A stretch of DNA of 64,000 nucleotides, taken from assembly GCA_026770705.1 (NCBI GenBank), contig JANJGN010000062.1, positions 1,488,001-1,552,000 of the forward strand. The letters are read 5' to 3'. The notes under the pieces are model-generated. The model was given only the letters and a program-made list of their open reading frames with translations. It was not told where the DNA came from and searched no databases. The position numbers and the translations under genes were made by a program. Origin of the DNA: Isurus oxyrinchus (Eukaryota). Shown here one piece after another: positions 4,001-53,479 of this stretch (position 1 is its first letter; every line of letters starts with the position of its first letter).

Positions 4001-5030
4001 GAACAGTGACGTACCACAAAAATCTGTGCTCGTTCCGCTATTATTCCTCATTTATATAAATGCCGTGGAAGACTATGTGGGGGATTGGTTTAGGAATGTT
4101 GCGGATGACAAAAAAGATTTGCACGAAGTTTAAGAGTTAGGTCGTGTGTCTTGGGCGAAAAGAAAAATAGACAGGATGGTCAAATGGGAATATAAGTGGC
4201 AGATGGAATTTAACCTTGAAAAGTGTGAGTTGATACAATTTGCATAATTAATTTGACGAGGCAGTATTCAATCAATGGCACATCGCTAGGTTGTTCTGAG
4301 GCAAAAAGGGACCTTAGCATGTGCGTCCATGGATCTCTGAAGGTGGAGGGGCAAATTATTTGGGTGGAGAAAAAGGCATAGAGGACACTTGCCTTTATCA
4401 ATCGAGGCATAGATTACAAAGGTAGGGAGGTCATTTTGAAGTTGTATCGAACCTTGGTGAGGCCACAGCTGGAGTAATGTGTACAGCTCTGGCAGCCACA
4501 TTAAATAAATGAGGTGATTGCCCTGAAGGGGGTGCAGAGGGATTATACAGAATTTTGCCTGGGATGAAACATTCAGGTCATGAAGAGATGTCAGTAGACT
4601 TGATTGGTTTTCGATGGAGCAGAGAAGACAGAGGGTCGACCTGATTGCGGTGTGTAAAATTGACAGGGGCTTTGACAAGATGCATCGGGAGCAGTCGTTC
4701 CCCTTAGCTGAAGGGTCAGTCGTGAGGGGCCGAATTCCAATGTGAGGGGCAGGAGGTTTAGGGGTCTGTGAGGAAAAACGTTTTTACCCAGAGTGTTGTG
4801 ACCGTCTAGAATGCACTGCCTGGGAGGTTGGTGGAAACGGGTTGCCTCGCATCCTTTAAAAAAAATGGATGAGTACTTGGCATGTCCTAACGTTCAAGGT
4901 TATGGGCCAAGTGCCGATAAATGGGATTTGGTAGGTAGGTCAGGTGTTTCTCACGTATTGGTACAAACTAGAATGGCCGAAGGGCCTCTTCTTCACAATG
5001 TGATTCCGTAAAGTTGTGATTCTGTCACCT
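1080..5030 (+). mobile_element. Near full-length, decayed CR1-clade LINE (ORF1 zinc-finger/esterase, ORF2 APE endonuclease + RT)
   Basis: ORF fragments: HVCWNCAQLQLLEAWVSELEWRL (ORF1 Zn finger/coiled coil); VMVHVRTNDI (SGNH-esterase-like ORF1); IVFGDFNFPNI (APE endonuclease); RT remnants near 4010-4110; CR1-type 3' tail near 5000-5025. Many stops and frameshifts. The 5' UTR may extend to about 830. Confidence 0.9.
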
Positions 5031-5899
5031 GTCTACACTTTTCGGCCCCTATCACAGTGGAACTGATGTGGAGCTTTGGCGGGGGATTTGACATCGGTTT
5101 TGAAGTTCCCATATGGTATCCATCAAAAGCGGCCTCCATTCCGGTCTATCACCCCCTGACCTTCGTTCCTGTCTCAACACACCTGCTGCTGAAAAGCTGA
5201 AATGATGTCTTCAAAAGCGAATATTTCAGCGTGCCCCCGTATCGCGCCCTATTGTGTAAATTCGATAAGTTACAGTATTTCAAAATATATCTAGTGTGAC
5301 CTGCACAAAGTCTTACTCACAGACAACGATTCTCTCAGTGATCTGCATTGCCTTGCCGTTGGAGAATATCTAGAGTAGAGCTTCAAATTTGTATAGACAC
5401 CTTGAGATACTTTCATGTCTCCCAATCCTTTCACTGAGCCACCAACAGCCCGAATCAGCTTATGTTCTCCGCAGGTCTCCAGAAATGTTAACTGGTATAT
5501 TACCCAATAACTTGGCCCATCGCTTTCAGCTTGTATTTGGCAGCCTTTGCTGAAAATTAGTATTTCTCCCAAGATGTAGCTGCCTGTTCAAATCTAAGAG
5601 AGTGTCTTCACATTTATCACTCTGGCCAAGAAAGTCGTCTTCTGTTCTATGACCTTTTTCAGAACTTATGTCCTGTTTTCTGACCGACTAAATTGCTGGG
5701 TAACTCCTGGGAACTTATTTTCCTTAATCAGTGCAGATATGAAAATACTTCGCTACTCAAAGCTACCGGTACTGATCACACCCTGCGCTCAACTCTTGAG
5801 CTGAATCGCTATATGATTGACAGTGATTTGTGTTCCGAGTTAACTACGTGGTATAGAAACCTCCCTTCCTGTTTCTGCCAAAATGAAATGGATATTCAC

Positions 5900-6210
5900 C
5901 TGAACACAGAACCCCTACGCCGATTCCCTCAGTGATAGACTGCTTCAATGTGAACGAGCTGCAGTTCGCAGAACCGAATAGTTTCCTTTGCACTGGAAAT
6001 CATTCGTGCACACGGCCCATTCACCTTCTCCGTCCTTTGAAGAGATATAAGCCGCTATAGCATCGGCGCAGGCCAGCTGACTGCAGACAACATTAGCATC
6101 GTTCAGATCCCAGATTCTGTCCTACACTCTGCCCCAGCGGCCGTGACTGTAAATCTCCAATAGCCCATCGCAGAGATTTCCGCCGTTTGACAGTCTTAAC
6201 GAAAAAATAT
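5900..6210 (-). pseudogene. Decayed SRCR exon, paralog of SRCR domain 4 (51175-51489)
   Basis: Minus strand reads RWGRV*DRIWDLNDANVVCSQLAC...VGVLCS versus [24 protein letters not shown]...VGVLCS in the intact copy. In-frame TAG; donor GTGAAT retained next to 5900. Confidence 0.88.
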
Positions 6211-7279
6211 CAGCTTCAAAACGAAACAGAAAAAAAACTAACGCAAATGATAAAAAAAAAGTTTTTGGCTGCCACACTTAGAGTATTTCAATGTTTAAAT
6301 TTAACCTGATGTCTATCCGCTGATGATTGCGCAGATTTGTCCTCTCATTACTGATTCTTCAGTGAAAATATTTCTGTGAGATGTTGAGAAATATTCAGTT
6401 TCGTACAGGGAAACTGAAATACAGCCAAAAATGAAAAGATGGGCATCCACCCTTACAGGATTTTTCAATTTTATGCATTTTAGGCCCACAAAATAATTGA
6501 ATTGCTACAAGACATTGTTCATGATGCCAACTTAAAAAAATGTAGATTTATTCTTATTCTGAATCAGGAGATGGTGGGAAGCTCGAAATTATGTCAAGGG
6601 TCAGAGAGCCAGCTGTCTTGTAATAAGGAACACAGACCACCCAGGTTATGAGTGATCACTGAATAGCTTTGTGAAATCAAACGATGGTTAATGATGAAGG
6701 CAAATTAATCAAATCATTGCACTGTTCCTGACGCCAAATTACTCTTTTCACGGATTCTAAGTGGGTAGTTCGTGAAACTGATTTGGGAAGTCAGTCTCTA
6801 ATTAATGAAATTGGCATGGTGTTTAAATGCCTGGGATTTGTTAACAAGTTAACGACTATTTGAAAGTTTTGCTGGTCAGTGATGGTAACATATGTTTAAT
6901 GATGATAACCCACAGTTAATGAGGTGGTGTGAGATTAATGAACGTGCTATTATAGCTCTTGAAGTGTGTCTACTGGTCGTGAGGCAGGGTAACACGAGCG
7001 AGTTGTTTGACACTGAGTTGTACATGAAACACGAAAATAAACCTATAATCAATGCAGGAGATGTTCAGACACTCTATCAACACACCTTCAGCTTTTTGTC
7101 ATTAATTACAATTAATTGGGGATGCTTTCGATGGATAGGCCAGGCGGATATATGAAAGCAACATTGAACTGCAAAAACGAGTTTAGATAAGACCATCACA
7201 GAGTGAAGCTGAAAAGTTGTTTCTTCCAGTCTCCAAATATTTGGGAGGAATTTCTCTGTCAATCCGTTAGTGTACACAC

Positions 7280-7593
7280 CGGAACCGGTCACACTGACAC
7301 CATTCCTGAGAGAGTACCCTGTTGATTTACTGGAGAAAGTGTACAGTCCATCAGGCTTGTCTCATTGCATTTACACTTAAAGCATTCATTCCGTAAAAGC
7401 CCATTGCCTTCACCAAAATAAGCTCCTCTCCGTAGGGACATGACGGATCCACATTGAAGCTGAGCTCAGAGCTCAGTGACTGCATTCCAATCCTAGTGAA
7501 AGACGTACACTGTTCCCCACTTGATTCCGGAATGTATCTCCACTCTACCCGAGCACTGGCAAGATCCATACACTAGACTGGGAAAGCTGGGAA
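7280..7593 (-). pseudogene. Decayed SRCR exon, paralog of SRCR domain 2 (57108-57422)
   Basis: Reads PSFPSLVYGSCQCSGRVEIHSGIKWGTVYVFH*DWNAVTEL*AQLQCG, with two in-frame stops. 314 nt instead of 315. Acceptor context ttactcag is identical to the intact copy. Confidence 0.9.
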
Positions 7594-10500
7594 CTGAGTA
7601 ACAATAATTGATAATGAAACTGATTATTTTCACCAATGTACACATTTGGTTAATCAGAAACTGTCAATGGTTTGTATTGATACTGGTTCCATTCTGAGAT
7701 AATGCCAATCCTGCTGCTCCCACCTTCCTCCAAAACTTATTGTTATTCTGCATTACTATTGATATATTGTCAATTTAGCCAATAGCTCTCAGTTTGATGC
7801 TACACACGTGCAGTGCATCAGCAGTGACATATCGACGAAATATCTGCAGATGCAGATGCGGAAATTCAGGTCAATAAATATCTGCTCTCCCCGCAGCCAC
7901 ATTTGTTCAGAAACAAGTCGTTCTCATCCAAATTCTCCTCTAGAAGCCATTGACGGAGACCGAGCCACTGAAAAAGCAGCGACAAATTCCCTGCACTGAA
8001 AGATGCAAATGAAAAGCTTCCCTTTCCCTCAAATCATTCCACCTGACACCCCAACATACAAGAGCTCATTGACGATGAGGAGAGAGGTCTTATTAATCAG
8101 AATGACCCGGAATACGACTTTAAGCAGCTGGTATTTCATTGGGTCAAACGTCCACAACCAAACTACATCAGATTGCAATCAAAGCCTCATCACCCCCGCC
8201 AGAAGAAATCCCATCACCAAAATGATTTTACATTTCTCTCTAATTGTATTATCTATTGCAAGGTGATAAATAGGTTTATTGAAGGAACTATTCTCAAGGT
8301 CCAAATGTACAGCATTTACTACCTTTGCCAGCTCACTTTTCAACAATCTCACTTGGATTTGTAAGGCTTACTCTTCACTCTATCGGCGAATATGGATGCC
8401 AATGTAGCTTTCTCTCGATACCACTTTCAGGATATAAATGTTGCCTGGCACACACTGACTTCATCTATACGTTGTGCAGAAACCGTGAGGGACTAAAATA
8501 TCCGTCGCTTCCACCTGGAAACCTGTGTTGTCCTCGGATAATTGTCGTCCACCATTTGATCTGATGTCTGATTGTGCAACTAACATATTGACGAACAAAG
8601 TCACGGTGCAACCTCAGGCATGAAATGATAAATCCGGGAATGTTCCACCTGAAAAGTTCTGAACATGGTAATTCCAAAGTAATGTTAACACTTCATCTAA
8701 ACAGATCAGTGAAAGTAATGGCCACACACAATGGAAAAATAAAATGGCTCTTGTTATTTTTGTATTTGTTTTTATCTAGGCAGCTATCATATAAAGAAGC
8801 TTGTTTGGCTGCATATTTAAGGAGCCTGGATGAGAACATAACCGGAATACATGTCCAGTTCTGAGAAGAAAGCATTAGAAAACGTAAACTCATCGAAAAA
8901 GCTTTAGAGCGGGCACACAAGAATTTTTACACCGTCTTCTCAGTGGAAACTTGAGAGGGAAGCTTATATGGATTGTTTCATGTTCTCTTCAACTCCCGCA
9001 GTTTTAAATTTAAAAGATTCCTGCAGCATTTCCGACTTTATTTCCTGAGAGGTTTACAAGCGGACTAGACAGAAATAGCCCGGTGCGGTCATGTAGTTAC
9101 AGGGTGTTCACATCAGATTCAAAGTAGGATGGAGATATTCCTGCAGACGCTTAATTATATAATCAAACACTTCCACCTCTTAATGTAATAATCAACGTCA
9201 AAATGACTGGGGAAACAGCAGCTATATTCTCTCTCATCCTCACTCTGCCCTCTCAACTCGTTTAATCGGGTCAGTGTGAGGCAATGAGAAAGCAACTGCA
9301 TTACGCCCCTTCCTTGGCAATTACTGACTGGTAACTTTCCATTACGTGACCTGAATTATATTCAATAATGTAGGGGAGCAGAGAACAAATAGAAAAAGCC
9401 TCAATAAACTAATTTAGTTTTAATCCAGGACATCATTTACACTGCGGGACCCAGACAACATTTTGGATAACAGATTATCAGACCGGTACCTTCCAAAATG
9501 GTTACCATTGTTTCTGAAGGATAGTTTCTGCGATAACAACTGTATCCCCTGAATATCCCTTACGTAGCTGTAATGCCAAAATTTTATTGGCGTGCAATGT
9601 GAACACCGCCTCTCCACAGGAACCCCTTAGCCTAATAAGGGTTATTAGCACGTTCTGTTTTTTTTTCTTCTGATTTCCAGGAACCACAGTTATATCATTT
9701 TCTCTTAATTTAGCAGTAGCCTTTCTATCCTCTCGTGCACAAGGGGAAAAAAAGCCACTACCGTGACAACCCATATGGAGTTAGGGTACAGGTAGCAAAA
9801 TCAATTCCAAACTGGTTAGCAAACAGAAATTATTGATTAGGGGTTGAGGGTAGATATTCAGACCAGCACAAAGTTAATACGTTGTGATCTACAGGTGCCA
9901 GGAACAAAATTCCCCACCGAATTATTCACAAGAAACTGTTCCAAATTACTGGATGAAGTGAAATTAGAAGCACGATTGAAACTCAGGAACATTGCGGCGA
10001 AGTACTGAAGAACAGTAATTACAGTGGCAGAATAAACAGTAATTGCAATAATTTTACAAAATGTGTGATCATAATTAAGGGCAATGAATTCATTTTGTTA
10101 GGCTTAATTCAGATGTCATGTACTCCTTGAAAAATGAAAGCGCAAATAAGTTAAGTGCAGAATCGGATTTCGGCGGAGAGATAAACAAATCATCGAAAAT
10201 ATAGATCAAGAAAATCCAAACAAAAAGGATAGAAAATACCGGCCTTCATTACTGGATGGACAGAATTGAAAAGTTTGATAGGTTTTTTTACGTTTCGGTC
10301 ATCGGACGCTTGCGCCAGCGGGATTTTACTGTGACGCCGAAGTCAGTGGACATTTGAATAGGTCGCCGCCATTTACGCCCCGCCCCCGCCGCAACGGGGC
10401 CGTAAAATTTCAAGAGACAACAGAAAATGTTGAACACTATCTGTAAGGATTGTGACAGTTCTGCGAGGAGGGCTGAGGGGAAACAATCAATAGCCAGGCT

Positions 10501-11889
10501 TTATTATGTTTCACTAATGAAGAGAACCCGGGACTTTGGACTATGTCCAAACTAGAAATCTAAAAAAAAACGCACAAAACATCCCAACATGTATTCAGAA
10601 AAATTGTTATTACGGCATAGATGTTTGAAAGTGGAATTCGTGACCCCAGAAGATCAGGTGGTTGCCATGGATATATTTAAGGGGGCGATTTATGATCAGG
10701 TGTGGGACAAAGTATCCTCAAGTTATACTAATGGCGACAGACGAGGCGGTGTTGTTGCGGCGGGATCGGGTGAGGGTTGGGGATGGAGAGAGTCTCGATT
10801 CGATCATTAACGCCAGGATGGACCAGTTGGCCCACGTGGACAGTAAATTTGTCCTCCAGTTTGTGTAGTTATGTGTCATATTCCCAACAATTCCACATTC
10901 GTAACCTTGGCTAACAAGGTCTGTATTTATTATTACATCCTTTGTATAATTGAGAAGATTGTTTGGTGGTTTTTAAAAACAGCTGCATTACGTGCGGATC
11001 AGGGACTCCGGATTTATTGTAAGATGGATAGTTCATTGAATTTGAACTCGCGGAATAAAGGACGTGGCTTGGAGATACGTTAAACGAATGTTTGGACTGG
11101 TGATCCCGTCCTCCCTCTATATAATACAGAATGCAGTCGTCGTGCCCCTTTGAGTGAGAGAATGGAGGTTGGTGGCGGTGAATGAAATCCCTGCCAAATA
11201 CAAACTTTGCCTGGGGGTGGCAAGGCTCCCGATTGTTGCTTCAGCAGCGCCTATTCAGGGCAAGTGGAGTTTGCACGATCTCTAATGAATCGGGACCTAA
11301 TAAGCTCTGGAGAGCGAGGTGATGATCGAAGTTCACGGCATATTCAGCCTCCGGCCTGCTCAAGTGCCGAAAGCATTGAAATGAGTCTTGCAATTGCGAA
11401 TTTAACCAAAGGTTCTCCCCAAGTTTAAGATGGCGAGGGACTGTTTTATCGCGAAGCAACTGAATGCCAAGCGGAGGCTTTCATTGTGTTCTTGTCGTTA
11501 GCCCCTTGCACATATCCGTGTGGTACAATTCTTACTTATCCCTGAGAATTTGAGGCCTGGGTGTAGTCCGGGATTTGCAATGTGTGGACTTGGGCAGCTT
11601 CCTAATTTGATGAATTTGTAATGTAGCTGAGCACTGAGCAATCATTAGTGAACAAGTACATTTCTGAATATATAACGTTAGAAAGGGCAGTGATGAAGCA
11701 ATTGAAGATAGTTCGACATTGAGCAGTAACTTAGAAAGTGTAGCTTCCGCTAAAGCCCTATGGACATTGGTTTTAATAGACTTGTTCAGTTTTACAATTG
11801 CAGCTCTGTACAGCCATACCCACCAATTTTGTTAATTTGGTAATTAATCTTTTCTGATGACGATCAGGTGAAATTATAGTGTCAGGATT

Positions 11890-12165
11890 TCACGCGCAGA
11901 CCCGTAGTCCAGCTCCCGAAACACCACAGCCGTGTCTTGCATGTCCCAGCTGAGACCAAACTGAGTCCCCCACTTCAGTTCTGTTGAAGGGTCATGAGGA
12001 CTCGAAACCTCAACTCTTTTCTTGTCCGCCGATGCTGCCAGACCTACGGAGTTTTTCCTGGTAATTCTGTTTGTGTTACAGTCCGCCACTTCCCCATGTA
12101 GTGAATCGCCACTCTTCCTGAGCACCTACGGCCCACATTCGACCGTCTTAGCTTCACTGTCTCCG
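11890..12165 (-). pseudogene. Truncated, interrupted SRCR exon, paralog of SRCR domain 1 (62516-62830)
   Basis: KWGTQFGLSWDMQDTAVVFRELDYG matches [25 protein letters not shown]. Acceptor AG changed to GG (ttttacgg). Interrupted by a ~104-bp insertion; 3' half deleted. Confidence 0.85.
11976..12079 (+). mobile_element. Short Penelope-terminal-repeat fragment inserted in the pseudo-exon
   Basis: Same sequence as the arms at 13653-13871 and 18755-19345. Flanked by a 12-bp near-direct repeat: agtcccccactt (11964-11975) and agtccgccactt (12080-12091). Confidence 0.8.
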
Positions 12166-12839
12166 TAAAACACCATAATACCGGTAGAATTACAACCTAA
12201 TAAACATCAGATCCCCAGCAATCGGGTTCGGTCGGTCAGTGCTCAATAATTTGCAATATTGGTCTGTGCCCAGACTCTCATTCAAAATTGGAATAAGTAT
12301 AATACGTGTGAAAGATAAAATTCTGATAGTAATAAACCCTGTGAACGTCTAGGTAATAAGTGAGAAGTTCACAGCACCAGAGATGTCCCCTCAGGGACAG
12401 CGTGTCCATAATTCACAATATGTTCCAGCCCCCAGAGATCAGAGAGACATGACTGTAATTGCTAACTGACTGATTGGACGCGAGAGATCCCAGCCCGAGT
12501 GCAAATTGGAAGATATCTAACCCTTCTCCAAGCCCGACCCGGAAATGGATCATTATGCAATCTCCATGACAAGGATGTTGTAACTCGCGAGGTGGCAGCC
12601 CATTTGCATCGGCAGCAGCATCAGTTGTTTTTCACATTCGCCTCCCTGGTGCCCCAGTCATTTTCGCTCTGCATTCGGCACCAATTCCCTCTCAACATGA
12701 TTTTAATATGTTCAGAAAGACAATTCAGGAAAAAAACTGCATTCGGCACTGGTAGCTATATGGAAACCGAGTTCATCAATGATCAAATAGACACTGCAAT
12801 TGTCTCCGGTATTTAGTTTGTCCTCGAGCATGACCCAGA

Positions 12840-13520
12840 CCTCCCTGTCGCTTGCGATTTCAAGAGTCCGCCCTGTTCTCATGCCCACATGTCCGTCTTT
12901 GGCATGCAGCATTGTTCCAGTGTTGCTCAACGCAAACTGGAGGAAGAGCACCTCATCTTCCGAGTAGGCACTTTACAGCCTTCTGGGCAGAATATCCAGT
13001 TCAACAATTTCAGGTATTGAGCTCTGTCCTCCATCCCCAACCACTTTCCAATCGCCTTTTTCCCAAATATTTATATAGGTTTTTATTTTCCCACCTATTT
13101 CCATTACTTTTATTAGTATTTCTGTCCAGTGCTTTATCTCTGCCTTTTAGCCTATTTCTATCCCATCCCCACACTCCACCCCCATTAGGCCTATCTGTAT
13201 CTTTATTAGCACATTCCATAGATAATATCACCAGCTTCAACACCTTTTAGTCCTTATGTCTTGTTTTGACATGTTTTGGCTATCTCCACCTATCTCTGGT
13301 CCTCTATCCAGCTCTAACTGTCCCATCCCTCCCCTCTAAACCAACTTATATTTCACCCCTTTTCTACTTTTTCTTAGTTCTGTTGAAGAGTTATACGGAC
13401 TCGAAACATTAAGTGTGTTCCTCTACGCAGATGCCCTCAGACCCATTTAGTTTTTCCAGGTATATTTGTTTTGTTTTGGATTACCAGAATACGCAGGGTT
13501 TTTTTTTTGCTTTTATCTTT
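12840..13520 (+). mobile_element. Penelope-like element 3' fragment (C-terminus of GIY-YIG region plus terminal repeat)
   Basis: cgcaaactggaggaagagcacctcatcttccgagtaggcactttacagcc encodes RKLEEEHLIFRVGTLQP, typical of the vertebrate Penelope ORF C-terminus. It is followed by the terminal repeat with a hammerhead-like core at 13376-13414. Absent from the paralogous intron near 63480. Confidence 0.8.
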
Positions 13521-13652
13521 TATTTTGGTTCGTTTTAATTGGCGTGGATTAGAGCAGGAAGTTATCTGATAATATGAAAATTGAGACTGATCACCTGATG
13601 GATTTTCCTGACTGCTGCCATGTCTGCCTGAAATGTAATATTGAGAATTAAC

Positions 13653-13871
13653 AAAACAAAAACAGAATTACCTGGAAAAACTCAGCAGGTCTGGCAGCAT
13701 CGGCGGAGAAGAAAACAGTTGACGTTTCGAGTCTTCATGACCCTTCGACAGAACCTTCTTTTCTTCTCTTCTTTTCTTCTCCGCCGATGCTGCCAGACCT
13801 GCTGAGTTTTTCCAGGTAATTCTGTTTTTGTTTTGGATTTCCAGCATCTGCAGTTTTTTTGTTTTTATCTC
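13653..13871. mobile_element. Penelope-derived fold-back insertion with 14-bp TSD
   Basis: Two inverted copies of aaaacaaaaacagaattacctggaaaaactcagcaggtctggcagcatcggcggagaagaaaa. Direct repeat tattgagaattaac at 13639-13652 and 13872-13885. Confidence 0.9.
13717..13754 (-). ncRNA. Minimal type I hammerhead-ribozyme-like motif (A6U variant)
   Basis: Minus strand GTT-CTGTCGA-A-GGGTC-ATGAA-GACTC-GAAAC-GTC-AAC: helix I (GTT/AAC), CUGANGA-like box, helix II, GAAA box, GUC cleavage triplet, no helix III. Activity untested. Confidence 0.6.
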
Positions 13872-15179
13872 TATTGAGAATTAACGTTCGCTGGGCGAAG
13901 AGATAAATGCACATGCAAGAAATGTTATTTCTTAAAAGCAACAACGAGGTTGTTTTGTCCTTCTTTGAACCAAAGGGTTGCAAGAACATTATGCTAACAA
14001 AATTCGCAAAGGCCAAAGTTCCCATTGTTATCGGAAGGTAGAATCTCTGTCGTTGTTCTGAAGAAATAATCTCGGAATTTGTGATTTCTCCTGTTCCCCA
14101 CTCCCAATAAAACAACCGATGCAGCCTCAACATCAAGTTCATCTTGCTAACATGTCAACATTTTTGCAGGAGTTCTGGAGAATACGCCATCTGAGAGATC
14201 AACTTCTCACTATATATAGCCCCTCCGACATTCTATCGATGGTACGTTGCCCTCATGACCCCGTTCGTTCTTGTTGACATTGTGACCTGTCGGTTTCTTG
14301 GTCACTTTCGATTTGTTAGTTTCACACCATTGACAGAGCGTTAACCTTTTCCAAAAGGTGTTAGTTTTTTTAAAATTTTACCTGAATAACCTTCTAGTCT
14401 CTCTAAATTCCAAATTTGCTGTTTTGTAGAACATTTGACACTGATTCCAGCCCTCAGATGGATTGCTGCACCTCCTTGCAAAATTCCCAGTTTTCCTTCT
14501 CCCACTTCAAATGATCCCATTATTCGCTGGCGCTACCGCATTCTGAAAGATTAACCTCACGGTTCTGTCAAAGCCTAACACAAGAATGGGGATTTGGGGG
14601 GCAATCTTTGCTGTCAGTGTAGAGTTGCTAAGGGCGTGTGAGGCTTTCCTGTAGTTGAAGTAAGTCACGCACTTTGGGCATTACAGAATGCAGAACGACA
14701 GAATGCCAGCCACATTGGTCCTGCTCAATTATCCTGCATGAAATCTTGAACCGCCTTCATCCAGACCTAAAGAAGGACCATATAGAATCGAAATGTTGAC
14801 TCTCTCCACAGATGTTCTCGGGTCTGCTGGGTTTTTCCAGCAATTTATCTACTGATGTTGCCAAAATCCAACGCCTTCTTTTTATTTTCTCCTTTAGTTT
14901 TAAACTACCAGCAAGTACATATCCAATACATCCTGTACAATTTTTTTAATGCTCCATATTGATTGACTCTTGCACCGTATCACAACACAGTAGAATTCCA
15001 TTAATATGTGTGACATATCCATTGTTGAATAACCTGCCCCAGTAACCTTGTGTCACCTTTCCAGGAAAAACTGACTAGGCTAAAATATTTCTGCCGAAAG
15101 CCTGCGCCTAATTAGAATGTATAAGTCATGAGTGTGATGCAATAGTTTGTAATTGTCTGAGTAATGGAAGTCGCAACAA

Positions 15180-18500: not shown

Positions 18501-18754
18501 TTGTATTACACAGAATACCCCCAAGCAAGATTAAATTTGTTAATTTTTGTTTTGCTTCATCAGTGTTTCTACATAATGCTGAAGGATTTAATGTTTCACT
18601 TCTGATGACGGCTGTAATTCCGAACTATGAGACAGTTCCCCAATAACACACACCTTCGGAGTAGTAATGTATAGCAGCTTCCAATAAAAATCAACGACCA
18701 ATCATTATCACTCCGAGTCTTCTGTACCCCTGGCGGGTTATATATCAGGTGATA

Positions 18755-19345
18755 AAAACAAAAAAAAAAAAACTGCGGATGCTGGAAATCCAAAACAAAA
18801 ACAGAATTACCTGGAAAAACTCAGCAGGTCTGGCAGCATCGGCGGAGAAGAAAAGAGTTGATGTTTTGAGTCCTCATGACCCTTCGACAGAACTTGAGTT
18901 CGAGTCCAAGAAAGAGCTGAAATATAAGCTGGTTTAAGGTGTGTGTGTGTGTGTGTGTGAGGGGGATGGGGGGGGGGGGGGGGGGGGGGGTCGGTGGGGG
19001 GAGAGAGAGAGAGAGAGAGAAGTGGAGGGGGTTGGTGTGGTTGTAGGGACAAACAAGCAGTGATAGAAGCATATCATCAAAAGATGTGAATCTTTTGATG
19101 ATCTGCTTCTATCACTGCTTGTTTGTCCCTACAACCACACCAACCCCCTCCACTTCTCTCTCTCTCTCTCTCTCCACCCCCCACACGCACACACACACAC
19201 CTTAATCCAGCTTATATTTCAACTCTTTCTTGGACTTGAACTCAAGTTCTGTCAAAGGGTCATGAGGACTCGACAAGTCAACTCTTTTCTTCTCCGCCGA
19301 TGCTGCCAGACCTGCTGAGTTTTTCCAGGTAATTCTGTTTTTGTT
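18755..19345. mobile_element. Penelope-derived ~590-bp near-perfect palindrome with 17-bp TSD
   Basis: Arms about 18792-19085 and 19090-19345 are reverse complements around a 4-nt GTGA loop. Direct repeat ttatatatcaggtgata at 18738-18754 and 19346-19362. Confidence 0.92.
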
Positions 19346-20999
19346 TTATATATCAGGTGATATTGCTACTTTGAAGACTATGTGGCGTTTACAGAGAACA
19401 AAATTATCAATGTTGTTTCATATTCAATGTCGCCAATTGTTACTCATTTACTCCCACTTTAGCAAACATCTGTTCCTCAATAGAGACACAACCAAAGTAT
19501 TAGTTTAGTACAACAAGGATTCCCTCTGCCGACAATGGACTGTCTCTTTGGTAGTCGGAACCACACTTCAAAGGCCATTAAGTGAATGTAACTAACGTCC
19601 AAACCATTTTCTCCTTACTCCTCAATAGTACCGAGCTGTCGGTTGAAGGCGGGCGATGACTTTGCCTGATGTGCATACCGTTTTCTAATCGGTCCACAAT
19701 TGTCCCCGGCTTTCTTTCGAAGGCTGTGCGACGACCTTGCCTTTGTTCACATAGTTTTAGCTTGTTTTTTTTTAATTGGCGGTTGATGATTCAAAATGCT
19801 AATGCAGAGCATTCGTACGCCCGTCTCATTGCTGTGAGTCAGCCTGTATAAAATGAGTAAGATTTAATGAGAGAGTCTATTCAGTTAATGTGTTCATATC
19901 AAACCTATGGATTGATTTATTATATTACTGATAGATAGATCTGATTGCTATTTGAGAACTCAGTGTTACCGGATATTTTATAGGGTCTTTTTCTTTCAGC
20001 TGAATGAGTCATATAATGGACCTTAAATTTGTATTTAGTGATTATTCGCTATATTGGAATAGTTCTGTTAATCGATAATGCATCACTCTGCAGGTTTTCT
20101 TTTATTTCATTTTTATTTTTAAATGAGTACAATGTTAAGTACATCGGCAGCGGGTCGGATTGATATTCTTGAGCCACTTTGTTGTTTTTGGGTCAGTTTG
20201 CCATTGTTCATAGGCTTATGTCGCTAACACGTTAACTGGAACAGTGTCAGTTTACGAGTGTTCCGTAACATCATTGGTACATATTGCGGGTTCACAATAC
20301 GTGAGTTGGGCCAGTGCAGCTTGATTTTAATAGACTTGCTTATTTTTTTATTTCAACGGATAAGAATGTGTCTTAATGGATTATTTTGTGCTGGAAGAAC
20401 GACATTTACACCTTTTAGATTGCTGGAAATTAACGTTGTTTTATCGGGTTGAAGAGGGTTGGTTTGTGGGGAATTTTCCCTATTTGCAGAGTGAGGCAGT
20501 TAATTCTCAGCGGGTTAGTTCAATGGCAGTCGGGTAGCTAATGTCTCTGTGTTAGTTTGGAAGTGATCGAAAATTTTAAATCCAGTCGATTATGTTCTTA
20601 AAATGGGGCAGCGGATCAGCAGGCCGGCAATTTCCTGCTCTTCAATCAGCTTGGGACGTGGATAACCTTTTGGGTTTTTGTTTGCTTTGTAAACACATGG
20701 CCAAAACGTTAGTATTGCGCAGGTTTGAAGGTTTTGAATCACTTTGGAGGATGATTACTTATTTGCCAGGTTTCCGGTTACTTTCTAATCACAATGTTAC
20801 TTTATACGCCATGTTGCCAGCATATGGCCGAGTGTTACTGTATAGTCACAATGTCAGTTAATTGAGTTTTGGCTTTTCTATGAGTTTGGATTATAATCAC
20901 AAAGTTAATCAACTTGTAGTTTTGTGTGTGTGTGTTCAGTCATTGACAGCAACACATTATCCATAAAATGGCAAATTGACGCACTCAATATGGCATACT

Positions 21000-23900
21000 T
21001 GTCTGGCATAGGACCTCTATCTTGCAGAATCTGAGTACCAACTGTCAGGCATTTCTTCTACACCCCATCTGGACCATAACCACATCAAACGGTACAATCA
21101 AGTGGTAGTTTCCAGGCCTGCCACCGAACTCAAATGCAAGGAATGCCTTCCCACTACAGCCTCCAAACTCATGGTACCCCAACTCTGTACCACCGACCTT
21201 TCCCTACTTCATATAATCCTCTCAAAAAGGACTGTCCTATGATACCCATTTACTCCACCTTTGCCTACCTCGGTGAAAGTATTTCTTCATATTTGTCTAG
21301 ATTTTGCTTCCCATGATGCAGAAGTCTCCTAAACAGCTTCGTGATAACTCCGTCGCCCTCAAACTCATCATTAATTTCCAGTTCCTAATTGCCACACTTC
21401 ACAATGTACATCCTATCCCTCCAGTCCTGCATCTGCCACACTGGCACTTTGATGCTCTCAATTTCTTCAATGACCAGAGGCCCGAACAGTCCATATCCAC
21501 CCACGTCCATCGCAGCCGGGCTGAACTTTATCTCTCACTGAGAAAACAAACGTTAAATTGTTTTTACTTTCCTTTCATCAAATAAGAATCACAGAGTCAC
21601 ACAGCTAAAACATTGCATTGAGGAACATTCGGCCCATCGTGACTGCTTTGGCACTCTAGGCATTTTAATTTAGTGCAAATCTCCTGTCCATTCCCCGTAA
21701 ACCTTTTCGTTTGAGAATGTCCCTAATGGAAGGACGGTAGTGAAGGTAACGTCACACAGGATCAGAATTCAGCTGGCAAGATGGATACAGAATTGGGTTG
21801 GTCATAGAAGGCAGACTATAGCAGTGGAAGGGTGCTTATATGAATGGAGAACGGTGACTAGTGGTGCTCCAAAAGAATCGGTTCTGGGACCTTTTTCTTT
21901 TTGCAGTATACGAAAATGGTTTGAAGGAAACTGTAACTGGCCTAATTAGTAAGGTTGCGATGAGATTAAGTTTGGAGGAGTTGCAGATCGTGAAGAGGTT
22001 TGTCAAAGGATTCCACAGGATATAGATCTTTTGGAGACATGAGCGAAGAATTGGCAGATGGAGTTAGTCTGTGCAATTGTGAGGTCATGCATTGTGGAAG
22101 GAATGATACAAGTAGGAATTATAGAGCAAATGGCAGAAACCTTGAGTGCATCGACGGGCAGAGGGATGTGGTTATACTGGTCCACAGGTCACTGAAAGTG
22201 GCAACGCAGGTCCACAAGGTAGTTAGGAAGGCATATGCCATGCTTGGCTTCATTGGCAGAGGTATTGAGTGTTAAGGTTGGGTAGTCATGCTGCAGATGT
22301 ATAGAACCTTGGTTAGACCACACTTGGCATATTGCGTGCAATTCTGGTCGCCACATTACCAGATGGATACGGAGGCATTGGAGAAGCTGCATTGTAGGTT
22401 TACCAGGAAGTTGCTGGCCTGGACATAATTAACTATGAGATGAGCTTGTAGAAACTCGGATTGTTCTCACAAGAGCGATGGAAATTGAGGGGTGACTTGA
22501 TAGAAATTTATACAATTCTGATTGGCATGGACAAAGCAGATAGACAGAAGCGTTTTCCCAGGGTGGAAGATTCAATTACTAGGGCACATGGATTTAGGGT
22601 GAGAGGAGAATACCATAGAGGAAACGTGCGAAGCAAGGTTTCTTTACGGATAGGATAGTGAATGTCTGGAATGTACTGCCAGAGGAGCTGGTGGAAGCAG
22701 GCACGATAGTGGTGTTTAAGAGGCAGCTGGACAAATACACGAATAGGTTGGAAATAGAGAGATACAGAAACCAGAATTGCTAAATGTTTTACTTTGACAG
22801 GCAATATGATGGACGCAGGCTTGGAAGGCCGAAGTGCCTGTTCCTCTGTGGTGTTTTTCTTTGTTCTTTGTTCTTTGCGGTTTCTATTGAAATAAACATC
22901 CAATAACGTCTTGAACGCCTCGATTGAACCTGCCAAAGCAACACTTCCATGCTGTGCATACAAAACCCTAATTTTTCACTGTTTGAAAAAGCTTTTTGCT
23001 CACTTCAGATTTGCACTCATATAGGTGGGGTTATAGGTGGCAGCATGGACCCGAATTACATCTGACTTTTTCGGGGGTGGTCATGTTCTATGTTTCTAAA
23101 TAAACTCCTAATCAGTCCCAATCCCAGAATTGATTCTTTTTTCTGGAACATTGATGACAGTTTTGCTGCCACTTTATGCTTTCTTCTGGACCATGGGGAA
23201 AATAAAAACAATCAAATTTGCATGCAATTGCAGACCTTTCTCACCTCCACATCTTGCAACTCCGATTCTTTCCTTCCACGACTTTTCTGTCTCAATTGCT
23301 GGTGATCGGCTGTGTACAAATATTATAGACAAACCCACCGATTTCCATAGCTACCTCGGCTGTACGTACTCACATCCTGCTTTCCAATATCCAACACTCC
23401 TGCCTCAAACATATCTCATGATGCTAGATTTCACAATAAAAATCCCAAATTGACTTCCTTCTTCCCCTGCCAAGCAAGCTCCCACCTTTTGGCCCCTTGA
23501 CCATGTCCGACGCATATCCAGAATTTCTGCATTCATTATTTTCCCTCCCTTTCTGAAGCCATGTGGTTGCCTATGCCCTCCTTCTCCATCCCAGCAGCCT
23601 GCATCACATACACGAAATGTAGCATGAGGTCAGGAGCAAACTTATCATCCCTTCTCTAATCTGGCGTCATTCCAAAGGAACATTTCTCTCTGTAACCACT
23701 TGGATCAAACAACTAGCACCATTAAACCTTCATTGCCGTTCACCTGCATTCTCACTTGCAATAGCTGGAGGTGTAATACCTCGAAATTTACGTCCTACCT
23801 CTTTACCATTAAAGCCTCAAGAAATCCCTCCAGGTGAAGCCATGATTTACTTATACTTCCTTCAAAGTAGTCTACTATATTTGCTGCACAAAACGCTATG

Positions 23901-24620
23901 TCGTCTACATTGGGAAGGCCGAGACCAAAATGAGTGTACTCTTTGCGAAAATAAATGAATGTTCTACGTCAGACATGAACCTTACCTTCTTGCTGCTTGC
24001 TATGTCACTTCACCAGCTTTGCTCTCATGCTCAAATTTCCATCTTCCGTCTGTGGGAATCTTTCAATGTAGGACAATGGAGGCTGGAAGGACACCTTCTT
24101 TGCAGTTAGGCAGTTGAAAGCCTGTTGGACTCAGCATTGAGTTTAACATCTTCAGGCAAAGAATTTTGTTCATTTTTTTCTGATGTAATTCTACACACGT
24201 GCAAGTCTGTAACTTGTTTCTTTGTTGTTGTTGTTGTTTTCAGTCAGAGCTAGCGCGTTTGTTTTGCCATTTTCTGCTAATTCGTTATTCTGGCTCAGGC
24301 AGTGCTCACATTTATTGTGCTATCGGTGTCTGGTCTCGAACTAATTATTAAACCTCAGCATTTCCTTGTCGTTCCCATTGTCTTGTGTTTCAGTACATTT
24401 TCCTAATGATATTTCTCGTGCCCTCTCACATGTTCCTGACCTCTCAATTTGTACTCCTGTCCCTTCTTTGCCTGCCCCTTCTTTTTTTATTAAAACAACA
24501 TTAAACTGATCAGATTTCCACCTCTGTCCTGTTCCTAAGCAATAAGTAATATTGGACTCCTAATTTTATCTATGTTTCCCTCTTCCCAGGTACTGACCAT
24601 GAGGTATCTTTTCACGTATT
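21000..24620 (+). mobile_element. Decayed Penelope-like element (RT + GIY-YIG), split by nested CR1 insertions
   Basis: Remnants FFWNIDD (RT YIDD-like), IIDKPTDFHSYLGCTYSHP, and a GIY-YIG-like VVYYICCTKRYVVYIG near 23867-23915. Terminal-repeat-like end at about 24530-24620. Confidence 0.75.
21730..22875 (+). mobile_element. CR1 LINE 3' RT fragment
   Basis: WIQNWVGHRRQTIAVEG...WRTVTSGAPKESVLGP; VVRKAYAMLGFIGRGIE; 3' tail with ttctttg repeats. Confidence 0.88.
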
Positions 24621-26299
24621 TTCAGCTGTTATTAAAATCGCAATATGATATGCTCTTCAATATTTATCCTGTTGACGTGATATAAGTTGACCATAAAACA
24701 AAATAACGTAACTGTTTTTCATGTGTGATAACAGTGGTTTGGTCGTATTTTGAAAGATGCTTTCTGAAGTTACGTTGATCGTATGATATCAGGAGTAGAT
24801 AGAATTGTCGCTCTGATGTAATACTTGCTCGGCAATGGTGAAGTGATGAAAACCTGAGGTGGACAAGTGAGCAGTATTTGAGGATTCGAAAGATTTTCGC
24901 CCATATTTTTTTTGTAACGGGTAGAGGCCAAAATGAAATAAGGCCACATGTAGGAAACAACTTCATTCAGAGAAAATCTTGTTAGAAGAGACAGTAGACC
25001 GAAGGAGAAGGTGGCAGTGGCGTAGATAGCTACTTTTCACTCTTACTGATGCAGCCTTCCTCCACAAGGAGGACTCCTCCCCATTCATGGATACACGCAG
25101 CCTCCTTCGGCACCACCCACACAGTTAAACATTAACAACACAAAGATGTCTCTCCACATAGATCTGCCACCTCTCCCACTCTTACACAGAAACAGCCACA
25201 GGCTGAGTTTCTTCACCAATAACAGACTCCGCATGCATGCAAATTCAGAGCAAGAATAGGTGATCAGACAACCTAAATCATCACTGATGTTATTGTGGAC
25301 TCTACTCCACATTTCACTTAACCTGATCGGCTTCGGCTCCCTTCTTAGTTATGTATGCATTTACATCTGCCTTAAAAAAAAATTGCACAGGCCCCGACGC
25401 CTCGTTTGGTTGGGCAAGAGAGATCGAAATGCTCATCAAGATCTGAGAGAAACATTCGTCACACTTGTGTCTTAAATCTGAGAATCCATGTTCTTTAACT
25501 GATCCACCAAGTTCTAGACTTGCCCAAGAGGACAGACGTCCATTCACCATTCACCCTGTCAAGTTCTGTCAGGATCTTATATGTGTAAGTCAAATCATCT
25601 CTCTTTCTTCGAAATTGGATCCTGCCCAAGACTGTTCAAACTTTCTACGTATGCTAACTTGCATTTCCCCATCCGCTCCAAAACAATTAACATATCAATG
25701 TTAGTTGCCTTCTTTTCAAAGTATGCAGTAATTGCAGAAAATTGGGTGTGCAAAACATAATTTAAAAGTTTGCCAAAAACAGAAACGCTTGAAGGGTTAC
25801 TTTGTTAAGACGATTGAGGTTAGTTTATTGAGAACCATGTGTATATTTTAAAGTGGATCCGAGGCAGAGAGGGCTGTTTTGTTCCAATAAATATGTCAAT
25901 CTGACAGACTTAGATGTTGAATCATACAGTCCTTCTGTTTTACAGGAAGAGTGATGAAGCTTAAGGGAAAAGACAGTCATGACAAACATGTGAGCAGCAA
26001 TACTTCAGATTCAGCTGTAGTGTTGTGCGCAGTGTTTAACAGAACACAATAAGAATGACATGAAGGTATTACAGAGGAAGCACAGACTTGGTTCAAAGTG
26101 GAGGAATTCAATTATCTGATTAGGTGTGTGAAATTTGATCTGTTCTCCTTGAAGAGGAGGTGATTAATTGGAGTTATGATATTGGTGTTCATAACAATGT
26201 GGATCCTGTGCATTCTGTACAGGGAGAAAGTGTTCTCCTTCGCTAAGTTTATGGACGCTGGGATTAAAGCAAAGGCGAGCACTTCTGATCTCCAACACA

Positions 26300-29739: not shown

Positions 29740-31150
29740 ATTACTGATATAAGCCAGGGAAGAACAGTCCAGTGAGTCTCAGGTCAGTTATAGGGAAAAT
29801 TAGAAAAAATTCTGAAGGAGAGTCTCTCTCTCCACTTGGAAAGGCAAGTTTTGCTCAGTGATAGTCAGCATGACTTTGTCAGAGTGAGGTCATGCCTAAC
29901 AAGTTTGATTCAGTTTTTTGAGGAGGAGACCAGATGTGTAGATGATGGTGCAGTTGGCGTAGCTTAAATGGATTTCAGCAAAGCTTGTGACAAGGTCCCA
30001 CATTGGAGACTTATAAAGAATGCAAATGCACATGGGATTCAGGGTTATTTGATAAGGTGAATTCAAAATTGCTTAAAGTGAAGGAGGTAGAGCGTGATGA
30101 CAGAAGGATGCTTTAGTGGCTGGAAACCCGGTCCATCCAGTGGCGTACCAAAGGGATCTGTGCTCGGTCCACCATTTTTGTCAATCATATAAATGACATA
30201 TTTGACTATGCGGGGGTTATGATTAGTAATTTTGCGTATGACACAAAGATTCGCTGGCAAGTTAGCAGTGAGTTTCAGTGTCTTGTGGATCAGGAAGATA
30301 TAGATGGGAAGGTCAAGTGGGCAAATAAGAAACAGGTGGAATTTAACCATGGAAAGTGTGAGGTGATATATATTGGAAAGATGACTTTGTCAAGGAAGTA
30401 TTCAATGAACAGAATGTCACTTGGATGTTCTGAGGAACAAAGGAAACTTGGCGTGTGTGTCCATAGTTCCCTGGAGGCAGAGGGGCACGTTGGTGGGACT
30501 GTGAGAAAGGCTTATTGGAGACTTGCCTTTATAAAACAAGGCACAGATTAGAAAAGGAGGGAGGACATGTTGGAGCTTTATAGACCATTATTGAGACCAC
30601 AGCTGGAGTAATGTGTGCAACCCTACTCGCCACATGAAAGGAAGGATGTGTTTACACTGGAGATGGTGCAAAGGGGATTCACCAGGATGTTGCCTGGGAT
30701 GAAACATTTAAGCTCTGTAGAGAGTTTGAATAGATTTGGGTTGTTTTTGTTGGAGCTGAGAAGACTGAGGGACGACATGATCGAGGTTTACAGGATTATG
30801 AGGGACATGGGCAGGTTGGATAGAGAATAGATGTTCCCCATATTTGACCTCTCAAGGGGGCATACTTTAAGGTGAGGGATAGGAGGTTTAGGGGGGATGT
30901 GAGGAAAACTTTTTTTTTTACCAGAGGCTGGTAACGGTCTGTATTGCACTGTCTGGAAGGGTGGTGGTGGCATGTTGCCTCACATACTTTAAAAAATACA
31001 AGGATGAGCATTTGGCACGTCATAACATTTAAGGCTATGGGCCAAGTTCTGGGAAATGGAAATAGGTTGGTAGGTCTGGTTGTAATCTCGTGTCGTTGCA
31101 GACTCGATGGGCCGAATGGCCTGTTCTGCGCTGAGATGCTGTGATTCCGA
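29740..31150 (+). mobile_element. CR1 LINE 3' RT fragment (same subfamily as 1080-5030)
   Basis: GVPKGSVLGP, ISNFAYDTKI, KAYWRLAFIKQG, VQRGFTRMLPGM; same 3' tail as 4900-5025. Confidence 0.9.
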
Positions 31151-33169
31151 TGCCATGCTTCCGTGATTATGGTAGTATTATTGTTACAAGCACTAAAATT
31201 TTCCTGAATTATTTTATGATTTACTTTGCAGTTGCTGTTTCATGCATTGTTTTTGGAGCTTGCTGTTTGCTAATTCCACCTAAGTTAATTCCATGCATTT
31301 ATCTTCGGATCCAAGGTTATCTGTCACTACAGTATCAATACTGTTTTATTAACTGTGCTATCCACAACATCTGCCTGTTCTACCTGATTGTTCAATGCCA
31401 TTCAATAATCAGTTCGCAGCGTTTCTTTCCTTGTAGCCATGTCACTGCAGATTTTATATCGGAGCTGGAAAACGTCAATCACAAACAGGTAGTAGTAGGG
31501 AAAGGAAAGAACACATTATAATTACTGTGGCAATGTGGATTACAGATAATGGAAACTATTCTATATTTCAGTTTTCCAAAAATGGATGTAGCTTATAAAC
31601 AAAATATGCCCCTTGAGTGACTCCTGCAATTTGACATACATAGCAGCTCAGTTCAATTTGTTTTAATGCTTTAGCGTGTCTCAGGAACCCTTGCAAGCCA
31701 GTTATGTTCATAGTTCGTACTTCATATCAAACATTAGTTTGTACCTTGCAATACAGCGACCAAGTAGAGGGCACACTAGAACAGATAACAAGATGCTTCC
31801 TTCATTTAAAAAACAGAACATGTTTGAATAGATCCCGTATGCCTGGCAGCATCAGTTCAGATAATAAGAACTCAGTTTTTTTGGAACTCTGAATTCCAAA
31901 GAGGAAACATATTGGACTGGCAAGGTTAACTCTTTTTCTCTCTCCACGGAAGCTGCCAGTCCTTCTGAGCTTTTCCAGCATGTTGTGTACTTATTACAGG
32001 CCTCCACTGACTGCACAAAATTGCTTTTAAATTCCATACATAATTTGCCGCGTTGCTGAGTGACAGATCAGTACAACGTCTAACTTTGATACAAAATGAC
32101 TCATTAGTGAGTTGTAGCAATATCCGCATGTTCAATGAATCCAGTATAGGAAAGCAGAAGCAGTACACCAACATGACTAATTCACCAGGATGGATTTGTT
32201 GTGGCCCTGAAAAATGACAGACATCAGGGAAAGAATGCTCTGAATGTAACGCATGTGGGTGAAATTTATTATTCCTCTAAGGGGGGCTCTGCCGTTTCGT
32301 ACAGAAATAAAGCTGATTTCCAGAGGAAAAACGGTCCACGTATGATTAGCGAAAGAGACCAGGTGACGAAGAAAGTGCATTTGTTGATGTAGTAGGTGCC
32401 AATTGCAAACACAGTAAAATAATTGATCTTTAGGTTTATGGATAGTAGGTATAGATGGGAGTCTAGCATGATGCTGATGCAGAGGAGCAGGTCGAGGGCG
32501 GAAGTGTAGGATATGGGACCGTCATGGTCGAGATCCCTGTGTGCCCCAATGAAGCCGACTTATGGGCAGAGCATGGAGGAAATAATTTCTATAGTAGTGT
32601 TGTGGAACGTGGCCCAATTAATACAGATGTGATGAAGGCGGAGGAATATGAAAAATCAACTGAGAAATTACAGGAAGCAGAATGGCAGGAATAATGATAA
32701 AGATTGGTGTGCATGACAGCAGCATTGTTATACGTATTGTAAACAGTCTATCCCCACAAATGGAAATAGGAAGTCGAGGGAGGACGCGGGAGTCCTCACA
32801 GATAAGTCATGCATAGGGAGGACAGCAATTGAATTATTTTATATAATAGATAGGTGGTCTATTCCAAGTCAACACCAGTAAACTAAAGGCAGAATAACAT
32901 AGCAGTTAAAATATCAGAAATAATGTTCCCTTCACATAAACAAAGGGATAGCTAGGACTCTTAAAGATTTAATGTAATTATTCTGCTTTTATTGGAGAAA
33001 TGCTGTAGATGCAAAGGTGATTTTTCCAATAAGAGTTAAGCTTCGACAGATGAAGATTGTTGCTGTTACAAGGCAATTATTTGGACTGACGTATATGAAT
33101 GAAAAAGATGGGTCGTTTGGAAAGCGTGGAAGGGGTCAGCGATGAAGCAATCCACAGAATTCCCAGTAA

Positions 33170-33880
33170 CGTAGGAGGCTAAAAATCCACTTGTAATCTT
33201 GGTGAATAATAATTAATAGGGATGAGGGAGAGATCGAGACTACCCATTCTGAGAAGAGACAGAAGTGGCTTTTCCAAGTATTGTGCTGCACTGGATTTGA
33301 ACGTAAACCTGAGGGATGGTGGTAGTGGGTGCCATGCCAGGCTGTCCTTAACAGAAGCTGAGGTGTTAGAAGGAATGGATTTCCAACTCAGTGATAGAGT
33401 TGTGGAGCGACTTAGTGTATTGGTGAGCGATGAACTTGCAGAAAGATTGGTTGTTCCGGCGTGGTCTGGAGAGGTAGACGGAATGGATGTCATAGTACAA
33501 AGAAAAGTACAGCACAGGAACATGTCCTTCCGGCTCCAAGCCTGCGTCGATCATATTGACCATCAACTAAAACATTTTGCACTATCCCTCTATTGCCGTC
33601 CTATTCATGTATTTGTCAAGCTGTGTTTTCAACACCACTATCGTTCTTGATCCTTTGGAGTTCGCTGCCACATGAATTAGTACAGGCCAAAACATTGCAT
33701 GTTTTAAAGGAAGACTTGATATAGCTCTTGGGGTGAAATGGTTCAAAGGATGTTGGAAAAAAGCTGGAGCAGGATATTGAGCTGGATGATCAGCAATGAT
33801 CATAATGAATGATGGAGCAGGGTCGAAGGGCCCAATGGCCTACCCCCTGCTCCAATTTCTATATTTCTATGTTCCTATGT
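33170..33880. mobile_element. Mosaic of old LINE fragments and CR1 3' ends in both orientations
   Basis: 33690-33880 is a CR1-type 3' end with ttctat(g/a)t repeats; 33490-33650 is an inverted 3' end. Confidence 0.6.
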
Positions 33881-45242: not shown

Positions 45243-45350
45243 CTGAGCCACGGGTCAGAGCTGGATCCTTGACAGGTGGTATATTTTCAATTTCTTCATA
45301 AATTGCTTGGTACAAATCAATTGGTGAAGCCCAACTGCCAGTGGCAAAAC
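45243..45350 (-). CDS. SRCR receptor cytoplasmic exon 1 (YEEI motif)
   Basis: tctccatcag acceptor, gtttgt donor, 108 nt: (G)FATGSWASPIDLYQAIYEEIENIPPVKDPALTRGS. Confidence 0.88.
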
Positions 45351-47470: not shown

Positions 47471-47537
47471 TAAATTGAAATAAAAAATAAAAATATCCGA
47501 GATTCAATGTGAAGTGAGTGGTAATGTTTGTCCTCAC

Positions 47538-47654
47538 CTTTCCTTGATGATTGCCTCCGCATTACCACAATTAGTAGGATGAACTCACAGATCAACAGGA
47601 TACCGATTGTTATACCAATCACAAGAGGGATGGAAGTGATATTGTCTTCATGTC
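47538..47654 (-). CDS. SRCR receptor transmembrane exon
   Basis: 117 nt, AG acceptor and gtgagg donor: (G)HEDNITSIPLVIGITIGILLICEFILLIVVMRRQSSRK, a hydrophobic helix followed by a basic stop-transfer. Confidence 0.92.
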
Positions 47655-53420: not shown

Positions 53421-53479
53421 AGTAAAAAAAAAACCTATTAAAGTAGATAAGTATTTTTTTCAAAACTACCGGATCCCTC

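Follow-up and report, generated by a model that had tools for sequence, protein, structure and literature searches.

Several features of insertions made by EN+ Penelope-like elements (PLEs) have been described. According to PMC8557442, PLEs in general have an inverted second copy, 5'-truncated and abutting their 5' end, and carry a tail of 30-40 bp at one end, while PMC3846280 describes inverted pLTRs, a 31-bp tail, TSDs of 8-10 bp and junction palindromes that it attributes to self-priming. Pairs of minimal hammerheads on opposite strands, separated by 100-700 bp, were reported in 2014 (PMC4209133), and inverted pLTRs with short extensions are named among the pitfalls of curation in PMC8969392. 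The PLE protein of anole was reported to cleave and extend both target strands in vitro, the tail being delimited by two RT start sites and hammerhead cleavage not being needed (PMC11167929).

The window analysed here is a stretch of 64,000 nucleotides containing a long palindrome at 18738-19362, referred to as palindrome A. It displays the traits of EN+ PLE insertions, namely an endonuclease-linked terminus, an inverted 5'-truncated copy, a 37-nt tail, a TSD of the variable kind and a pLTR hammerhead, and it is very probably a truncated PLE insertion. Its architecture is the expected and already published outcome of PLE integration, as described in PMC3846280, PMC8557442 and PMC4209133. As in Pen2 and Pen3 of A. 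vaga, Penelope of D. virilis and Naiad (PMC3846280, PMC8557442), 5'-truncated copies lie head to head, and the 30-40-nt tail at one end, the TSD and the palindromic junction are likewise shared with EN+ PLE insertions from the same sources. It differs from them in being truncated to the point of containing no ORF, in having arms equal in extent and in carrying long microsatellites inside the 3'UTR; moreover, its TSD of 11-17 bp exceeds the 8-10 bp of A. vaga. The non-LTR retrozymes of bioRxiv 10.64898/2026.07.22.740005 are also short, non-coding, PLE-derived and hammerhead-bearing, but are built there of tandem units joined head-to-tail, whose intact hammerheads share one strand, whereas palindrome A is head-to-head with mutated hammerhead cores and is therefore not a retrozyme. 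Literature searches on Penelope in shark, palindromes, inverted repeats, Neptune and nonautonomous forms returned no description of this family, which supplements may list.

Architecture of the palindrome

Palindrome A comprises 591 bp enclosed by 17-bp direct repeats of the sequence TTATATATCAGGTGATA, identical at 17 of 17 positions. The following features were delineated (coordinates in the window, strand, description):

18738..18754, plus: left TSD, 17 bp; its final 4 bases, GATA, also fit the tail end of the element
18755..18791, minus: tail, 37 nt, on the left arm only; the same tail is found on copy B (13835-13871) and, diverged, on copy D
18792..19085, minus: left arm, 294 nt; 5'-truncated PLE 3'UTR and pLTR in minus-strand sense, running into the tail
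18856..18894, minus: hammerhead remnant of the left arm, minimal type I; G12A and G16.2A (both CpG decay), U at position 6
18939..19021, minus: left-arm microsatellite, 83 nt; GT, G-run and GA on the plus strand
19086..19089, no strand: spacer GTGA, 4 nt; head-to-head junction of both truncated 5' ends
19090..19347, plus: right arm, 258 nt; tailless inverted PLE end in plus-strand sense, its final 2 bases overlapping the TSD
19154..19200, plus: right-arm microsatellite, 47 nt
19245..19283, plus: hammerhead remnant of the right arm, minimal type I; G8A, A14C, C15.2A, U at position 6
19346..19362, plus: right TSD

An initial annotation had described a palindrome of about 590 bp with a 4-nt loop, a 17-bp TSD, a one-sided tail and arms that are near-perfect reverse complements with microsatellites varying mainly in length, and each of these points is borne out by the features above. 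The tail lies within the 30-40 nt by which PLE tails are defined in PMC8557442 and PMC11167929. The longer microsatellite of the left arm has additional G-rich sequence that includes a long run of G. Outside the microsatellites, 9 of 214 positions differ between the arms (8/149 in the outer part and 1/65 in the inner part), and CpG transitions account for four of the nine differences, two per arm. The observed/expected ratio of CpG across the window is 0.54, and the CpG decay of the arms fits genuine genomic DNA and not read fold-back.

Exact 17-mer direct repeats spaced 100-1000 bp apart occur five times in the window; one of them is the pair flanking the palindrome, and the remaining four sit inside a tandem array at 54.4-55.4 kb. 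Six of the 17 repeat bases double as element sequence, two at the tailless end and four (TATC) at the tail end, so that the unambiguous TSD, and hence the stagger of the cut, is 11-17 bp. Copies B and D have this TATC in their tails as well. The flanks have neither a paralog nor an empty site within the 64-kb window, and the TSD call is therefore made from the direct repeat itself. Part of the TSD (18743-18754) forms a short imperfect palindrome, TATCA-GG-TGATA, which is absent from the TSD of copy B and is probably due to chance.

The hammerhead-like motif that the initial annotation placed in each arm is real, the two motifs being on opposite strands with both cores substituted. Five hammerheads could be aligned in the window (13376-13414, 11977-12015, 13717-13755, 18856-18894 and 19245-19283). 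Like the minimal type I PLE hammerheads of PMC4209133, they have a 4-bp stem I, an extra base (an inserted A, following A9) before a 5-bp stem II closed by G10.1-C11.1, a GUC cleavage site and, in place of stem III, a CG palindrome at 15.2-16.2, which is intact only in copy B. The two motifs of palindrome A are about 350 bp apart, resembling the opposite-strand pairs of the same paper. Across the five copies 49 of 50 stem cells are paired, with three one-sided changes and no two-sided one; on these sequences, the pairing is a matter of consistency, not proof of covariation. Relative to the active core (C3 U4 G5 A6 N7 G8 A9 ... G12 A13 A14 A15.1 U16.1 H17), position 6 is U in all five, across subfamilies that are 76% identical, whereas it is A in 44 of the 44 rows compared in Fig. 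S3 of PMC4209133; the copies in palindrome A are further mutated. A natural A6C variant has low activity according to PMC3088659. Literature searches on A6U in the hammerhead catalytic core found nothing, and the PLE variant study of Lunse et al. may describe it. The strict A6 core has no match in the window, and no Rfam hammerhead model matches there at E<=1; a relaxed descriptor matches copies B, C and D as well as two unrelated sites, and neither arm of palindrome A passes it. Both hammerheads of palindrome A are presumably dead, because of their core substitutions and because the sense motif would pair with the antisense copy in any transcript. Hammerheads with U6 would escape standard CUGANGA descriptors, and such families may thus be undercounted. 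A candidate fossil mini-palindrome beside the hammerhead of palindrome A, on its 5' edge, was rejected, as it scored no better than shuffles (z -0.6 and 0.1).

Related PLE termini in the window

A profile search for PLE ends in the window returned ten matches at E<=10, six of them being the training copies. The insertions used for comparison, and an older coding remnant, are the following:

11977..12079, plus: copy C, of the same subfamily as palindrome A; solo tailless arm from the first base of hammerhead stem I, with a 12/13 TSD
12821..13527, plus: copy D, an older PLE 3' end; endonuclease C-terminus, 3'UTR, hammerhead (13376-13414) and tail
13653..13871, plus: copy B, of the same subfamily as palindrome A; minus-strand tailless arm (13653-13754) and shorter plus-strand tailed arm (about 13770-13871)
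23640-24640, plus: remnant H, an old frameshifted PLE (aligned part 23.8-24.2 kb); Cys-rich linker, GIY-YIG-like motif, endonuclease end and decayed terminus
31813..32030, plus: copy E, an old head-to-head PLE end with approximate boundaries

The arm of palindrome A is 76% identical to the end of copy D over 186 nt (E 2e-30, BLAST within the window). Its innermost 67 nt are collinear with positions 13271-13337 of copy D, an alignment that 30 of 2000 shuffles score equally well, and on this comparison the entire arm, apart from the expanded microsatellite, is D-like 3'UTR. The initial annotation had claimed homology to a Penelope end at 12840-13520; this holds for the 3'UTR and terminus (13271-13517), but the ORF of copy D is not covered. 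The initial annotation had overlooked copies B and C, which are closer to palindrome A than copy D is, differing from the arms at 4-10 of 100 positions (90-96% identity). Further old remnants of PLE ends are found at 14757-14890 (plus, E 8e-9), 50636-50691 (minus, E 0.005) and 9654-9695 (plus, E 0.12).

The TSD of copy B is identical at 14 of 14 positions (13639-13652 and 13872-13885), and that of copy D is degenerate (8-9 bp). The target sites of copies B, C and D each occur once in a paralogous stretch at 62660-63970 (that of B near 63.6 kb), which identifies their flanking repeats as TSDs. TSD length thus varies among the insertions, being 17 in palindrome A, 14 in B, 13 in C and about 8 in D. 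Tailed and tailless arms are paired in palindrome A, in copy B and probably in copy E, where the plus-strand arm is tailed and the minus-strand arm is partly deleted and apparently tailless; the tailless arm occurs alone in copy C and the tailed arm alone in copy D. The tailless ends of the right arm of palindrome A, the left arm of copy B and copy C agree within 2 nt, and the tail is of identical length (37 nt) in palindrome A and copy B.

The inner end differs in each of the four other well-defined PLE-end insertions of the window. In palindrome A it lies 155 nt upstream of hammerhead stem I and in copy D 555 nt upstream; it falls exactly at stem I in copy C, one base inside it in the left arm of copy B and directly after the hammerhead cleavage site in the right arm of copy B. 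The centre of copy E, a 21-bp palindrome at 31880-31900, lies two bases before stem I. The junction of copy B (13755-13783) shows AAC(T) microhomology between the stem I halves and a 13-bp tandem duplication. The inner arm of palindrome A (19019-19087) matches nothing in the window except its partner arm, and no copy with the same centre or internal structure is present in the 64 kb. Since its centre is found in no other copy of the window, palindrome A is likely a one-off, dead-on-arrival insertion rather than a member of a mobile palindromic family, and it is most likely unable to move again and without function. Of the interpretation given in the initial annotation, a non-autonomous Penelope derivative, the retrotransposed, non-coding and PLE-derived nature is retained; that of a distinct element is not, as all other inner ends differ.

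As a separate observation, the truncated 5' ends or centres at 11977, 13754 and 31890 belong to three independent insertions and lie about 2 nt or less from where stem I starts. In copy D this start is preceded by a pyrimidine tract and AG, resembling a splice acceptor, and an intron end is mapped to helix I in D. virilis in PMC4209133.

Copy D opens with a frame of 65 aa (12823-13017) that is ended by a stop. In the Atlas (3063) its first match (0.95) is an unnamed eukaryotic cluster; among named clusters the closest is a GIY-YIG one (0.89), 15% of whose members carry PF01541, and this is to be taken as a lead. The frame aligns with remnant H (31%, E 3e-6), where the motif VYYI..C...YIG is preceded by the Cys-rich linker. 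It has no match in Pfam, NCBIfam, PDB or a word-index search of longer proteins, and the frames of remnant H gave nothing meaningful in Pfam or NCBIfam; the endonuclease call is therefore drawn from the Atlas match, the internal alignment and the motif, which provide a lead that the frame may be the C-terminus of a GIY-YIG endonuclease. A search of prokaryotic genomes for the frame gave 334 pattern matches, none of them confirmed, and its single-sequence structure model was of low confidence (pLDDT 54). An arm 31-mer of palindrome A had no exact match in prokaryotic genomes, and the arm was unmatched in plasmids. No RT was detected by a Pfam scan among the 226 open frames of the window of at least 70 aa. 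PLE termini of this kind are probably typical of cartilaginous fishes.

The family of palindrome A and copy D looks Neptune-like. The endonuclease end of copy D, LIFRVGTLQPSGQNI, is by eye closer to that of Neptune-1_Ac, WIFRLRTEHPQGLNE, in Fig. S2 of PMC8557442 than to PoseidonFr, IHVKLEKPSLNR. The likeness to the Neptune clade lies in the order of C-terminal endonuclease, 3'UTR and hammerhead in copy D and in the Cys-rich linker before GIY-YIG in remnant H, both being compared with the CX2-5CxxC linker and the Neptune-type end by eye only. It is a likeness of endonuclease ends in a window containing no RT, and palindrome A, which has no coding part, is only 76% identical to copy D.

Formation of the palindrome

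Palindrome A is best explained as a single 5'-truncated integration in which both target strands were primed at two sites and the products were joined by snap-back, a reading with a probability of about 0.6. A GIY-YIG/RT protein from an intact element elsewhere would make a staggered cut of 11-17 bp, and both target 3' ends would then prime reverse transcription. A start at the distal site would give the tailed arm and a start 37 nt further in the tailless arm. Synthesis of cDNA would halt upstream of the hammerhead, at a distance of about 155 nt. One of the two cDNA ends would snap back at what is now the centre, and the strand made in this way would pair with the other cDNA to give two equal arms around a 4-nt spacer. 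The arms would then decay separately by CpG loss and microsatellite slippage. The snap-back step is invoked because two arms truncated independently would end within 4 nt of each other in about 0.3-3% of cases under a uniform model. The window lacks the parental sequence that would lie upstream of the centre, and copy D is a weak proxy for the snap-back hairpin. Copies C and D would represent single-primer events, and copy B a microhomology join or a later deletion; its unequal arms could have arisen by later deletion of a palindrome like A.

The closest experimental counterpart is Poseidon_Ac of green anole (PMC11167929), with which palindrome A shares tailed and tailless ends, a hammerhead shortly upstream and an AT-rich target. 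That system, however, was studied in vitro and belongs to the Poseidon clade, with starts in an AC-rich stem-loop, whereas the tail of palindrome A is U-rich and its family Neptune-like. PMC11167929 also describes no homology between start site and target, as opposed to the 4-nt overlap found here.

Less probable is an origin from a single cDNA, in which the tailed cDNA folds back and copies itself and the endonuclease resolves the product 37 nt short, leaving the tailless arm. Equal arms and the tight 4-nt loop would follow directly from it, self-priming is proposed in PMC3846280 and tail resolution by the endonuclease in PMC8557442, and no variant of either arm is shared with copy B or C, as expected of arms that were initially identical. 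Copy C, however, is a solo tailless arm with its own TSD and the same endpoint, which suits an RT start better than a resolution point, and in PMC11167929 the tail is placed between two RT start sites.

The interpretation of the initial annotation corresponds to a self-propagating non-autonomous palindrome, in which transcripts of a master copy would be mobilised in trans as whole units. Both termini are indeed present without an ORF, non-autonomous PLE derivatives exist (PMC8557442; bioRxiv 10.64898/2026.07.22.740005), and copy B, with its microhomology junction and duplication, could be a collapsed copy. This possibility is nevertheless rather improbable given that the inner arm finds only its partner and the inner ends of copies B, C, D and E all differ; furthermore, the published non-autonomous forms in these two sources are head-to-tail, and a near-perfect duplex RNA of 250 bp would presumably be a poor template.

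The locus itself matters little, being most likely a dead transposon scar. Palindrome A is of interest as a clean example for the question of how inverted pLTRs and tails arise during PLE transposition. A bolder extension, which must be considered doubtful, is that the window records all two-primer PLE products in vivo, from paired tailed and tailless arms of equal or unequal length to either arm alone, together with a hot spot where templates end, at the 5' edge of stem I, and an A6U core shared by the whole lineage. If this were true, a genome-wide census of palindrome centres would map the formation of inverted pLTRs and the ends of template RNA, and most insertions of this vertebrate PLE lineage would supply the host with self-folding dsRNA, which would explain the heavy editing reported for Penelope.

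Hairpin fold and genomic context

The plus strand of palindrome A folds at -479.8 kcal/mol (z -39.9), with none of 100 shuffles equally stable, in agreement with the long hairpin that the initial annotation had predicted for a transcript. The two strands fold alike (plus -477.5, minus -472.3), and perfectly paired stretches of 70 and 72 bp persist. The loop, which had been described as GNRA-type, does fit as GUGA; this carries little weight, as about 1/32 of four-base loops fit per strand by simple arithmetic, and a selected GNRA loop was rejected as likely chance. If read through by a host transcript, the palindrome would be predicted to form a duplex of about 250 bp, which could be an ADAR or Dicer substrate and would leave no room for hammerhead folding; no host transcript covering the palindrome was identified. 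The DNA may also be able to extrude the cruciform that the initial annotation had proposed. In lizard, Penelope is the one other massively A-to-I edited LINE-type repeat according to PMC5625713, and this editing may be linked to palindromic insertions. PLE insertions supply ready-made long hairpins, which can be wrongly annotated as MITEs or as precursors of miRNAs and are possible substrates for editing.

That the insertion has been retained by the host as a hairpin RNA gene, giving endo-siRNA or an editing substrate, would agree with the persisting perfect duplex runs and with the heavy editing of Penelope in lizard (PMC5625713). It is very improbable, since the 4% divergence of the arms, without a compensatory pattern, fits neutral decay and no host exon was found near the palindrome in the window. 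Rfam returned 21 matches, all below the gathering score, 18 of which are generic hairpin matches on the palindrome.

Being short, non-coding, palindromic and flanked by direct repeats, palindrome A could pass for a MITE or a fold-back DNA transposon with long inverted repeats as termini, yet this is largely refuted by the 37-nt overhang that makes the inverted repeat non-terminal on the left, by TSD lengths that are not fixed, and by other occurrences of the same sequence, which is found both in solo arms with TSDs of their own and after an ORF resembling a PLE endonuclease. The initial annotation, too, had argued against a MITE. Errors are common in long palindromes and G homopolymers, and the exact length of the G run may be wrong, but an assembly or library fold-back artefact is hardly credible given the 9/214 differences between the arms, CpG decay in both, the exact flanking duplication, the family-typical tail and two more palindromic copies nearby.

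Palindrome A is located between two copies of an SRCR gene. The intact-looking copy (45300-62864, minus strand), which is presumably CD163/WC1/SCART-like, encodes an SRCR-repeat membrane protein; its seven SRCR exons (Pfam PF00530) are accompanied by a transmembrane exon at around 47.5-47.7 kb and, near 45.3 kb, by a cytoplasmic exon containing YEEI. A broken paralog at 5880-14248 corresponds to 51155-63967 with 63-80% identity in blocks and retains remnants of three SRCR exons. Copies B, C and D all sit in this broken paralog; copy C interrupts one of its SRCR exons, and copies B and D lie within 2 kb of the exon so split.

Several other repeats were observed. The PLE-end remnant at 50636-50691 lies within an intron of the intact-looking SRCR gene, and the tandem array mentioned above (54390-55422), which is degenerate with steps of about 110 nt, is likewise in an intron of this gene. 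A pair of dispersed 1.4-kb repeats (3615-4992 and 29749-31127), 72% identical and with no Pfam match, is probably an old transposon. A short dispersed repeat pair in inverted orientation (22703-22870 and 33491-33644) is 74% identical.
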